From a virus (taxonomy: Duplodnaviria > Caudoviricetes): a DNA stretch of 64,000 nucleotides. The position numbers were made by a program, and so were the translations under genes. Under the pieces are notes generated by a model. The model saw nothing but the letters and a program-made list of their open reading frames with translations. It did no database searches and had not been told where the DNA came from. Shown piece after piece: positions 35,734 through 38,195 of the stretch (position 1 is the stretch's first letter; every line of letters begins with the position of its first letter). The stretch covers positions 32,001 through 96,000 of IMG/VR virus record IMGVR_UViG_3300031555_010858; one strand, 5' to 3'.

Positions 35734-35844
35734 AAAACCCCTATGCCAATCATAGGCATAGGGTATATGTCAAAACAATAACAATAAGAGGTAAGATGTT
35801 TATGTTTCAAGTAATATGATGATTCCGATACCATCATTTTACTT
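35734..35844 (-). ncRNA. Candidate ~110-nt late small RNA with anti-Shine-Dalgarno seed
   Basis: Late promoter AACA-AATTAG-TA at 35855-35844; 5' hairpin begins exactly at +1; single-stranded CAUAAACAUCUUACCUCUUAUUGUUAUUG; terminator CCCTATGCC/GGCATAGGG plus U tail; no RBS-led ORF. Confidence 0.6.
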
Positions 35845-35915
35845 ACTAATTTGTTATACTAAATTAAATTTTATAAAAACCTTATTATAATTTATCAACA
35901 TACCAACAACTTCTT

Positions 35916-36013
35916 AATGCGATAGCAGCATTAAGAATAAAACGAACCTCCTTAAGAGGTGAGTGAAGAAGTTGTTAAAATAAAAATATGGTTGGGAAGT
36001 TACGTTTATTTTT
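35916..36013 (+). ncRNA. Candidate ~100-nt late small RNA containing ACCUCCUUA
   Basis: Late promoter AACA-ACTTCT-TA at 35905-35916; hairpin at +1; ACCTC-cttaa-GAGGT hairpin. The 3' end is uncertain. Confidence 0.35.
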
Positions 36014-36017
36014 GCTG

Positions 36018-36056
36018 TGTAAAAAGGTTAAATTTCAATTATATATTATAAAAGTG
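36018..36056 (+). promoter_or_regulatory. Early promoter
   Basis: TGTAAAAAGGTTAAATTTCAATTATATATTATAAAAGTG. Confidence 0.8.
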
Positions 36057-36094
36057 AATATTTCATTAATGATTTAAATCATTAATGAAATATT
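36057..36094. repeat. Perfect 38-bp palindrome at the 5' end of the RNAP-subunit transcript
   Basis: AATATTTCATTAATGATTT|AAATCATTAATGAAATATT. Confidence 0.9.
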
Positions 36095-36140
36095 AATTAA
36101 GCAATAACAATAAATATATATTAATAGGAGGTAAATGTCT

Positions 36141-38195
36141 ATGAATAATAATTTTAATTTTGATTTAAATAAATATATTGAATTTGAAAATCAAATTTTA
36201 AATGAAGTAGAAGAAATTTATGGTGGAGATAAAATATTCGATTTAAACAAAATCATATCCGATTATGATGAGTTTAAAACAATGTACGGACATATATATT
36301 ATATATTAGAAGAAGGATTTGAGATAGAAGCTATAAGAAAATTTCCAGTAAAAGTAACATTTGATAAAAACAATGAACATTATGTTGAAATGGAAATTAG
36401 ACATTTATTAATAAATATGATATTCTTAAGAGCATTTGTAGAATTAGAAGTTGAAGTAGAATTAGATATAACATATTTATTTGATGCTAGAAAGATTTCT
36501 AATAAGTATATCAAACAGTATATAGATGAAAAAATAATAATTCCATTTAAAGATCAATTTACAGAAACTGAAGAAGGTTTTATGGAATTGAATATAGTAT
36601 TACATGATATAATCTACAGATTAAACAAGATACCAAAAGATTTTAATAGTCTTATGGGAATAACAATAAATCTTGAGAATAGTTTTATAAAAGTTGCAAA
36701 AGAAAATAAAAGATTTAATGAATTAATAAGAACTAAGATACCAGAAGATATGCAACCAAAAGATATAGAAAATCATCTTAATAAATTAATGAAAGAAGAA
36801 GTTGAGATATTAAAAGAAACTCCAAACTGTTTCCAACCAATGTTAATAGCAGGTGGAGCAATTAAAGAAGAACAACTTAGAGAGTTCTCAATTAACGGAG
36901 GATTAAAATCAGACCTATTAGGTAACACAATTCCAATACCTATCAATAGTAACTTAATAGTTGGAGGTTTTAGTAACATAACAAACTATTTTATAGATGC
37001 TGGAGCTTCAAGAAAATCATTAATAGCTAATAAAGAGAAAATGGGTAGTTCAGGACATATGGCGTTATTAATGAAATTATCTTGTGTTGGAACTTATATC
37101 AGTGAAACAGAAGATTGTCATACACCACATACAGTTAAATTAACAATTAATGATAGTAAATTCTTAGAAATGTGTGTTGGAAGATATTATAGATTACCAG
37201 GTATGAGAGAGTTTAAATTATTAAAGAAATCTGATACACATTTAATAGGAAGAACTATATTAGTTAGAGACCCAGGTAAATGTGGATGTAAAGATGGAGT
37301 ATGTAAAACATGTTATGGAGCTTTATCTAAAGTTAATAAAGGAATGGATGTTGGTATATTTGCAGCAACGATTATATCAAGACCATTATCACAAAATATA
37401 TTATCAACAAAACATCTTAACACAACTAATAGTTGTCTTATAGAGTTTAATGATGCATTTGATAAATCATTTAAACTTGAAGCAAACCAAGTTAAAATGT
37501 TAAGTGATAATGAAACTGATGTTGATTTAAGTCAATATGAAATGGTATTTGATAATATAATACAAATTGATGAATTATTAGACAATGCAGATTTTAATAA
37601 ATTTGTACAATTTGTTAAAGTGAGAAACATTAAGAATCATGATGAATATTATGAGATAGTTGAAAACGATGGAAAAGAATTATTTATACATCCAGATTTA
37701 GATGCTATAATTAAGAAAACAGAATCTGATGAAGATGGAGTTATATTAATACCGTTTAGCAGATTATCTGAAGAAACATTATTCACAATAAACATAGAGA
37801 ACAACGAATTAACTAAACCATTAAAAGAAATGGATAAACTTCTAAGTGGATCTTATTTCAAAGGAATGAATCCAACATTAGATATGATGGAACAAAGATT
37901 TATAGAATTATTAATAGAATCTAAAATCAGTGTATTATCAATACATGCAGCAACAATATTAAGATCATTTGTTAGAGATGCTAATAATTATTTAGAAAGA
38001 CCTAATTTCAATAAATTATTTGTAGATTATGTTGTATTAGGTATGCACGCATCATTAGCAGATAATCCATCTATAACAAATAGTTTAGCATACGATTATC
38101 TAAAATCTCAACTATATACACATACAACATTTAAGAAGCATAAACATTCACCATTAGATTTAATGTTTATGAAATCTCTAGCTGATGTAGAATAG
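36141..38195 (+). CDS. Phage RNA polymerase beta-prime C-terminal subunit, probably non-virion RNAP (phiKZ gp74-like)
   Basis: Bridge-helix-like YFIDAGASRKSLI..SSG, Zn site VRDPGKC..GVCKTCYG, trigger-loop-like VGIFAA..LSQNILSTKH. Early promoter. RBS spacing favours ATG 36141 over 36135. Confidence 0.88.
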   Translation: MNNNFNFDLNKYIEFENQILNEVEEIYGGDKIFDLNKIISDYDEFKTMYGHIYYILEEGFEIEAIRKFPVKVTFDKNNEHYVEMEIRHLLINMIFLRAFVELEVEVELDITYLFDARKISNKYIKQYIDEKIIIPFKDQFTETEEGFMELNIVLHDIIYRLNKIPKDFNSLMGITINLENSFIKVAKENKRFNELIRTKIPEDMQPKDIENHLNKLMKEEVEILKETPNCFQPMLIAGGAIKEEQLREFSINGGLKSDLLGNTIPIPINSNLIVGGFSNITNYFIDAGASRKSLIANKEKMGSSGHMALLMKLSCVGTYISETEDCHTPHTVKLTINDSKFLEMCVGRYYRLPGMREFKLLKKSDTHLIGRTILVRDPGKCGCKDGVCKTCYGALSKVNKGMDVGIFAATIISRPLSQNILSTKHLNTTNSCLIEFNDAFDKSFKLEANQVKMLSDNETDVDLSQYEMVFDNIIQIDELLDNADFNKFVQFVKVRNIKNHDEYYEIVENDGKELFIHPDLDAIIKKTESDEDGVILIPFSRLSEETLFTINIENNELTKPLKEMDKLLSGSYFKGMNPTLDMMEQRFIELLIESKISVLSIHAATILRSFVRDANNYLERPNFNKLFVDYVVLGMHASLADNPSITNSLAYDYLKSQLYTHTTFKKHKHSPLDLMFMKSLADVE

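Follow-up and report, generated by a model that had tools for sequence, protein, structure and literature searches.

A conserved late element with an anti-Shine-Dalgarno loop beside the virion-type RNA polymerase beta gene of an AR9-like jumbo phage, and its candidate targets

Introduction

Firmicute small RNAs (sRNAs) with C-rich or CU-rich seeds, among them RoxS, FsrA and the Rsa RNAs of S. aureus, direct an unpaired pyrimidine-rich loop against GGAGG-type sites, thereby masking the Shine-Dalgarno (SD) sequence, and carry hairpins at their 5' and 3' ends. In AR9/phiKZ-like phages the known control is exerted at the level of promoters, and to our knowledge it is not understood how these phages stop making their early products, the late polymerase included. 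Synthetic antisense oligomers (peptide nucleic acids, PNA) directed against phage translation initiation regions (TIRs) reportedly silence jumbo-phage mRNAs by masking these regions, such agents being man-made and not phage-encoded; the RNA proposed below would act in a like manner. Here we analyse a stretch of 64,000 nucleotides of phage DNA (positions 32,001 to 96,000 of IMG/VR record IMGVR_UViG_3300031555_010858; hereafter the window), in which a unit of ~110 nt with the loop-and-hairpin layout of the Firmicute sRNAs lies upstream of a gene for a virion-type RNA polymerase (RNAP) beta subunit. An earlier note, made from the letters of this DNA alone, had proposed that the non-virion RNAP (nvRNAP) transcribes from this unit an sRNA that blocks translation of the adjacent nvRNAP subunit, the C-terminal part of beta' (beta'C).

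By mechanism, the closest known analogue appears to be the c4 antisense RNA of phages P1 and P7, a phage small RNA that shuts off translation of a phage mRNA through loops that pair around its ribosome-binding site, and which, like the present unit, is encoded just upstream of a gene and in the same orientation (PMC12197685). The c4 RNA is part of the immunity circuit of a temperate phage, where its target is the transcript of the operon that encodes it; the phage analysed here is a jumbo phage of lytic type, and the best-matched genes are unlinked ones for the nvRNAP. The present unit also has an nvRNAP-specific promoter and shows no sequence or Rfam similarity to c4. Compared with the Firmicute seed sRNAs, the candidate RNA differs in being phage-encoded, in having a phage RNAP promoter and in a complementarity that extends through the spacer to the AUG, which makes it an antisense copy of a whole TIR. 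The late units of phage AR9 share with it the promoter grammar AACA-6N-TA/G, and AR9 also has late transcripts that are not mRNAs as well as long regulatory 5' untranslated regions (UTRs); no such trans-acting RNA has been described there (PMC5312081).

Results

The sequence of the unit and its conservation indicate a genuine late non-coding RNA element that displays an anti-ribosome-site loop, the RNA itself being a candidate. Its parts, and the gene downstream of it, are as follows.

35844 to 35855, minus strand: P1, late promoter of the AR9 type (AACA at 35855-35852, then six bases, then T at 35845 and A(+1) at 35844)
35734 to 35844, minus strand: candidate late small RNA of ~110 nt, or first part of a long beta leader; strong fold, no conserved open reading frame (ORF), 11 related loci
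35809 to 35844, minus strand: 5' hairpin from +1, a predicted fold in which stem letters vary and pairing is kept (G001, L039, G002)
35784 to 35796, minus strand: anti-Shine-Dalgarno (anti-SD) loop UCUUACCUCUUAU, 13 nt, in a weak hairpin with AACA/UGUU closing stems (35772-35808)
35739 to 35763, minus strand: GC hairpin of 9 bp, followed by U4 (35737-35734), a possible terminator
35699 to 35710, minus strand: P2, a second late promoter between the GC hairpin and the beta ATG, 38 nt before that ATG
31519 to 35661, minus strand: virion-type RNAP beta subunit gene, 1380 aa (phrog_3148, E 1e-170), the conserved neighbour of the RNA module

The late promoter consensus of AR9 is AACA-6N-T-A/G(+1) (PMC5312081). 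P1 lies where the earlier note had placed a late-type promoter and conforms to this pattern, the minus strand at 35855-35844 reading AACAAATTAGTA, that is AACA AATTAG T A. A closely similar word, AACA-N5-GTAAG, stands ~50 nt ahead of the ATG in 10 other genes of this genome (G000), and P1 itself is retained in G001, L039, G002, G003 and G005. P2 is kept in all relatives, including contig L038, which is without the P1 module. Since P2 lies downstream of the hairpin, the beta gene, whose promoters are of the late class only, does not depend on P1.

Folding of the 114-nt RNA gave -35.1 kcal/mol (z = -5.8 against 200 shuffles). The hairpin that the earlier note had drawn from +1 was thus recovered within a strong fold, and the anti-SD motif of the core lies in the loop of a weak hairpin. 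Within this loop UUACCUC occupies 35794-35788 (minus strand), and the bases adjoining it mirror the spacer and start codon of a GAGGUAA-type ribosome-binding site, the plus strand at 35776-35804 reading CAATAACAATAAGAGGTAAGATGTTTATG. In each genome this unit is the only place where TTACCTCTT stands in intergenic DNA without being antisense to a real gene start. A possible 3' end is offered by the GC hairpin and U4 here, with weaker tracts in the relatives. Among the public runs listed for this stretch none is on record as RNA; four runs compared over 35200-36700 gave contigs only, from which neither the strand nor the ends of a transcript can be read. One contig, covering 35639-35904 (X19, probably DNA), has four differences, none of them in the core.

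The candidate sRNA has its own promoter and no conserved ORF, on either strand, among the sequences compared (own, G001, G002 and type B, as defined below). We rejected a small-protein reading, since the 47-aa minus-strand ORF at 35837-35694 has no SD, crosses the hairpin, is reduced to 10 codons in G001 and has no Pfam or PHROG match; a plus-strand mini-ORF and a plus-strand late promoter beneath the core were set aside as well, neither being conserved. A cmscan search of 35300-36500 up to E = 10 returned only chance-level snoRNA and miRNA matches and no Rfam family, C4 (RF01695) included.

The module lies on the minus strand immediately upstream of the beta gene in G001, G002, G003, G005 and the metagenome contigs L039-L045, that is in 11 related loci and in every related lineage but L038. 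It is shared by five or six lineages in which the beta gene is 38-69% identical over its first 500 residues; the G001 sRNA stretch is 77% identical to our own. Two architectures occur: type A (own, G001, L039, G002) has the 5' hairpin, while in type B (G003-like, G005-like) a hairpin follows the core. P1, the GC hairpin, P2 and UUACCUCUU are retained in both; UUACCUCUU is invariant and displayed in a loop in either type and so forms a conserved, accessible seed. In the related genomes, where the earlier note had called for a check of covariation, the hairpins vary in sequence while pairing is preserved, with compensatory changes in both hairpins and, for the GC hairpin, in 4 of 10 pairs among the four type A sequences compared; a MAFFT alignment joining both module types misaligned the cores and was excluded from the covariation analysis. 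Because motif, loop and pairing are conserved without conserved frames, we conclude that the element is real, selected and non-coding.

Conservation follows the virion-type beta gene and not beta'C, which had been proposed as the dedicated adjacent partner. Among ten viral loci related to beta'C, this gene is usually not adjacent to the beta gene; it lies tens of kb from the module in G002, G003 and G005 and is separated from it by one gene in G001. Adjacency to beta'C thus appears, from the gene order of the relatives, to be a feature of this genome on which the system does not rest. The virion beta gene of the AR9-like phage Goe21 is preceded by a spacer of just 91 nt with no such module.

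The lineage without the module, L038 (contig JAEIGA010025773.1, beta gene 56% identical over the first 500 residues), keeps P2 and has a stronger ribosome site, GAGAGGAG; it offers a natural 'deletion' comparator for the P1 module.

Candidate targets were ranked by cofolding, with ddG taken as dimer minus monomers, against 156-158 translation start regions of the own genome; duplexfold on whole sequences yielded unrealistically long AT duplexes and was replaced by this measure. The leader of beta'C ranked first of 156, with -21.6 kcal/mol against a mean of -8.0 (sd 3.8) and -18.5 and -17.6 for the next two, and stayed first when the TIR window was set to -35..+20 (158 TIRs). The other top targets are homologues of AR9 nvRNAP proteins, namely beta'N/gp270 (PDB 7S00_d, E 2e-35) and the promoter-specificity subunit gp226 (7S01_A, 2e-11). 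Ranks of the nvRNAP subunits, all with the -35..+20 window, are given below by genome.

Own genome, 158 TIRs: beta'C 1, beta'N 2, gp226-like 4; beta N and beta C not in the record
G002, 262 TIRs: beta'C 13, beta'N 2, gp226-like 40, beta N 15, beta C 39
G005, 271 TIRs: beta'C 93, beta'N 3, gp226-like 39, beta N 84, beta C 23
G003, 222 TIRs: beta'C 131, beta'N 59, gp226-like 56, beta N 180, beta C 17

All five subunits are therefore inside the top 40 of 262 in G002, and the virion-RNAP subunits rank low as partners. Counterparts of AR9 g105 (nvRNAP beta N) and g089 (nvRNAP beta C) were not found in the 82%-complete own record and are present in G002, G003 and G005.

The comparison with shuffled controls, also called for by the earlier note, used decoy RNAs in which UUACCUC was kept and the flanks were shuffled, and in none of three genomes did a decoy match the real RNA. 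The mean nvRNAP rank was 2.3 for the real RNA against 24.3 ± 13.6 for decoys in the own genome (0 of 40 as good), 34 against 87.6 ± 19.6 in G002 (0 of 25) and 50.6 against 107 ± 27 in G005 (0 of 20), where beta'N ranks 3 with the real RNA and has a median rank of 125 with decoys. In a CopraRNA-like average over 60 ortholog groups in four genomes, beta'N came first, the gp226-like protein third and beta'C seventh; by calculation, three named groups would all reach the first 7 places of 60 by chance with a probability of about 0.001. Contiguous pairs in the beta'N duplexes number 13-17 in G002, G003 and G005, and the flanks used differ between module types. Complementarity to targets is thus above controls in the own genome, G002 and G005, with beta'N at ranks 2, 2, 59 and 3 in the own genome, G002, G003 and G005. 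As to the feedback on nvRNAP proposed earlier, beta'C is indeed the top target here and is joined at the top by beta'N and the gp226-like subunit, but its own pairing is not kept in the relatives.

Early versus late gene class was rejected as the cause of the nvRNAP ranks, as the classes differ by just 1-2 kcal/mol, in a comparison for which the late-motif regular expression is too permissive in so AT-rich a genome.

Two further early genes stand out among the predicted partners. They form a pair at 58324-63161 encoding proteins of 638 aa and 971 aa, neither with a Pfam, PHROG or PDB match; the leader of the former is the second most consistent predicted partner over four genomes, and that of the latter ranks 4 and 1 in type B genomes.

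The pairing with the beta'C leader involves the following features on the opposite strand.

36099 to 36143, plus strand: predicted pairing site in the beta'C leader, with block 1 at 36099-36113 (containing a shared 12-mer), a 14-nt bulge, and block 2 at 36128-36143 (SD, spacer, AUG at 36141)
36018 to 36060, plus strand: early promoter of beta'C, of the virion-RNAP (vRNAP) type, with TATATATTAT at 36040-36049, six bases and G(+1) at 36056
36135 to 38195, plus strand: nvRNAP beta' C-terminal subunit gene, 686 aa (PDB 7S00_D, AR9 gp154 of the nvRNAP, E 8e-50; phrog_3015)

The early promoter consensus of AR9 is AAATATATATTAT-6N-G(+1) (PMC5312081), which the beta'C promoter matches. The identification of the neighbouring gene as an nvRNAP beta'C homologue was borne out by the PDB match, and the gene sits behind this AR9-type early promoter. 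Its early mRNA has its start site at 36056 and a 5' UTR of 85 nt that opens with a 17-bp hairpin, the second ATG (36141) being the likely true start because of its SD spacing. The core complement (35776-35804), the 12-mer and the second block were all found where the earlier note had located them: the 12-mer CAATAACAATAA of the core complement recurs at 36102-36113, and GAGGTAAATGTCTATG stands at 36128-36143. This 12-mer is the longest exact word common to the core complement and any of the 158 leaders, the next being three 10-mers. The predicted duplex has 30 intermolecular pairs (ddG -21.4 kcal/mol), and the region 36099-36143 is mostly unpaired in the folded beta'C 5' UTR. The match between the core and beta'C exceeds chance modestly.

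With the RNA and start regions of each relative, beta'C ranks 5 of 55 in G001, 13-41 of 262 in G002, 118-131 of 222 in G003 and 93-163 of 271 in G005. A cross matrix of sRNAs by leaders has no diagonal, our own beta'C leader being the best partner of every RNA, and the beta'C leaders diverge, in contrast to the invariant core of type A. The leader 12-mer also overlaps a late-promoter-like AACA motif, which is a perfect AACA-6N-TA in G003, G004 and G005 and one base off here. As 'continuously expressed' genes of AR9 bear both early and late promoter types (PMC5312081), the conservation of this block may have a different cause; late-promoter-like motifs are nevertheless frequent in this AT-rich DNA. 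From these comparisons, the beta'C 12-mer would be a lineage-specific extra.

The virus record comprises 202.6 kb with 28% GC (82% complete; window G000:C1:32001-96000), and the stretch is present in public metagenome runs from cattle gut and faeces; the phage is uncultured. Its own beta'C protein is 27-28% identical to the AR9 and PBS1 counterparts, indicating a distant AR9/PBS1-like jumbo phage, and no near-identical phage record was found. The candidate unit lies within the 473-bp spacer separating the two divergent genes (31519-35661, minus; 36135-38195, plus). Among the tblastn matches of the 1380-aa beta protein is one that bears the annotation 'viral RNA polymerase beta subunit'; a tblastn of the phage's own proteins, this one included, against AR9 60-109 kb gave no match. 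The genome also encodes GroEL-like, RNase R-like and topoisomerase II genes.

Several other elements of the window are of note. Two more late-promoter units, at 44474-44612 and 55152-55438, are strongly structured and free of ORFs up to the point where the following gene has its own promoter, suggesting that this phage has several late non-coding RNAs. The beta'C early promoter belongs to a 40-nt family, TGTAAAAAGGTwAAwTTTCAATTATATATTAT-6N-G, which counts 8 or more copies in the genome (the one at 36018-36060 plus at least 7 elsewhere) and lengthens the AR9 early consensus on its upstream side. A perfect 38-nt palindrome at 36057-36094, which forms the 17-bp hairpin, starts at +2 of the beta'C early mRNA, and similar 5'-proximal hairpins occur in the G002 beta'C leader and downstream of an early promoter at genome position 61642; such hairpins may act as operators or stabilise the 5' end. 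The plus strand at 35861-36012 contains an element that resembles a structured RNA: it is ~80 nt long, has a three-way junction (35898-35978) and is preceded by a conserved AT-rich motif of its own. Another copy in this genome, at 22415-22574, is 84% identical and differs by compensatory changes in the stems. The relatives all carry the element, in at least 2 copies per genome, placed shortly before the early promoters of beta'C and other genes; the hairpin downstream of it is a clear terminator in relatives, and it has no Rfam match.

Discussion

We tentatively favour the reading that a late RNA masks translation start sites in trans and that the mRNAs of nvRNAP subunits are its best candidate targets. 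The nvRNAP would transcribe 35844-35734 (minus strand) late from P1 as a non-coding RNA, in which stable 5' and 3' hairpins would flank the weak hairpin whose loop shows UCUUACCUCUUAU, the mirror of a GAGGUAA-type site. This RNA would pair in trans with TIRs and block binding of the 30S subunit. The best-matched targets would be the early-expressed nvRNAP mRNAs, with beta'N across lineages and beta'C and the gp226-like subunit in this phage, and late transcription would thereby throttle further synthesis of the late polymerase. The core fits GAGGUAA sites far better than the GGGUGAG site of the adjacent beta gene, which is in line with action in trans.

A number of points weigh against this reading. 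Production, end point, pairing and repression of the RNA are all inferred. The nvRNAP leaders are not enriched in G003, where their ranks are 17-180 of 222, and even with decoys they are better partners than average (mean rank 24 of 158); these are low-complexity sequences rich in AT. That the nvRNAP genes form a set was noticed only once the ranking was known, the related genomes are non-independent samples, the gene calls are crude, and untranscribed bases may lie within some target windows. One lineage, L038, is without the module. The terminator drawn in the earlier note ends in four U only and was not called by a terminator scan; with a U tract that is short here and poor in relatives, P1 RNA may read into the beta gene. 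Finally, wherever the module occurs it is linked to the beta gene, a hint of a role in cis.

Such a cis role is the first alternative to be weighed, and we regard it as rather unlikely. The unit would be a leader of the virion-RNAP beta gene in which read-through from P1 lets the anti-SD loop sequester the beta ribosome site, while the short mRNA from P2 is translated; in a variant, a processed leader would act on the downstream message, like c4 RNA. The module is always directly upstream of beta, whatever gene lies on the other side, and the hairpin is followed by a weak U tract, the more so in the relatives. Folds from P1 (+1) to ATG+24 pair the core with the beta SD over ~7 of 8 nt in the own genome, G001 and G005 and over 4.4 in G002, and 24 pairs are possible with the beta TIR. 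However, such predicted pairing is not specific, because any anti-SD folds onto any SD in cis, and it is not predicted in G003 (0.9 of 8). The core complements the beta sites GGGUGAG or GGAGUU poorly, with mismatches and G-U pairs, but GAGGUAA perfectly; as a partner the beta TIR ranks 28 of 158, 157 of 261, 132 of 222 and 79 of 271, and it is difficult to see a reason for a silent long isoform when the gene has a conserved promoter P2 of its own.

Less likely still is a dedicated repressor of the adjacent beta'C acting through the 12-mer and the SD/AUG block. The leading rank in the own genome, the 30 predicted pairs over SD and AUG, a 12-mer longer than any other word shared with the 158 leaders, and the high rank in the closest relative, G001, would all be expected of it. 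Against this, the pairing is not conserved, as the ranks and the cross matrix show, an invariant core faces varying leaders, and the genes are neighbours only here and, across one intervening gene, in G001. Moreover, the AACA motif overlapped by the 12-mer may owe its conservation to something else, and the 12-mer would be absent from any late-initiated beta'C mRNA.

We consider it equally improbable that the RNA is a generic anti-SD RNA, with no gene-specific target, that damps GGAGGUAA-type sites of phage or host late in infection. The invariant part is UUACCUCUU only, the 30 of 158 genes with GAGGTAA average -11.2 kcal/mol against -7.2 for the rest, and the top targets vary between genomes, all of which would fit a generic action. 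Real flanks nevertheless beat decoys in three genomes, early-class genes overall are just 1-2 kcal/mol better than others, and one RNA species would be unlikely to titrate many abundant mRNAs stoichiometrically.

That the unit has no pairing function, being the relic of a duplicated ribosome site, as the earlier note had allowed, or a promoter with an insulating hairpin whose complementarity is incidental, is very unlikely: the plus-strand core does have the look of a normal TIR, with SD, spacer and ATG ahead of a frame of 5-7 codons, and AT-rich leaders pair readily, but the motif and its loop display are conserved across lineages with diverged surroundings, the plus-strand frame is not conserved, type B is without any ATG, and the hairpins covary.

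Returning to a late RNA that masks start sites in trans, a more specific proposal, which we advance as rather doubtful, is a feedback at the level of RNA, in which an sRNA made by nvRNAP would mask the sites of beta'N, beta'C and the specificity subunit and, by its position beside the virion beta gene, would couple the shut-off of one polymerase to the making of the other for packaging. If true, the two-polymerase programme of these phages would gain a level of post-transcriptional control, and the unit would provide a compact natural scaffold for anti-TIR RNAs.

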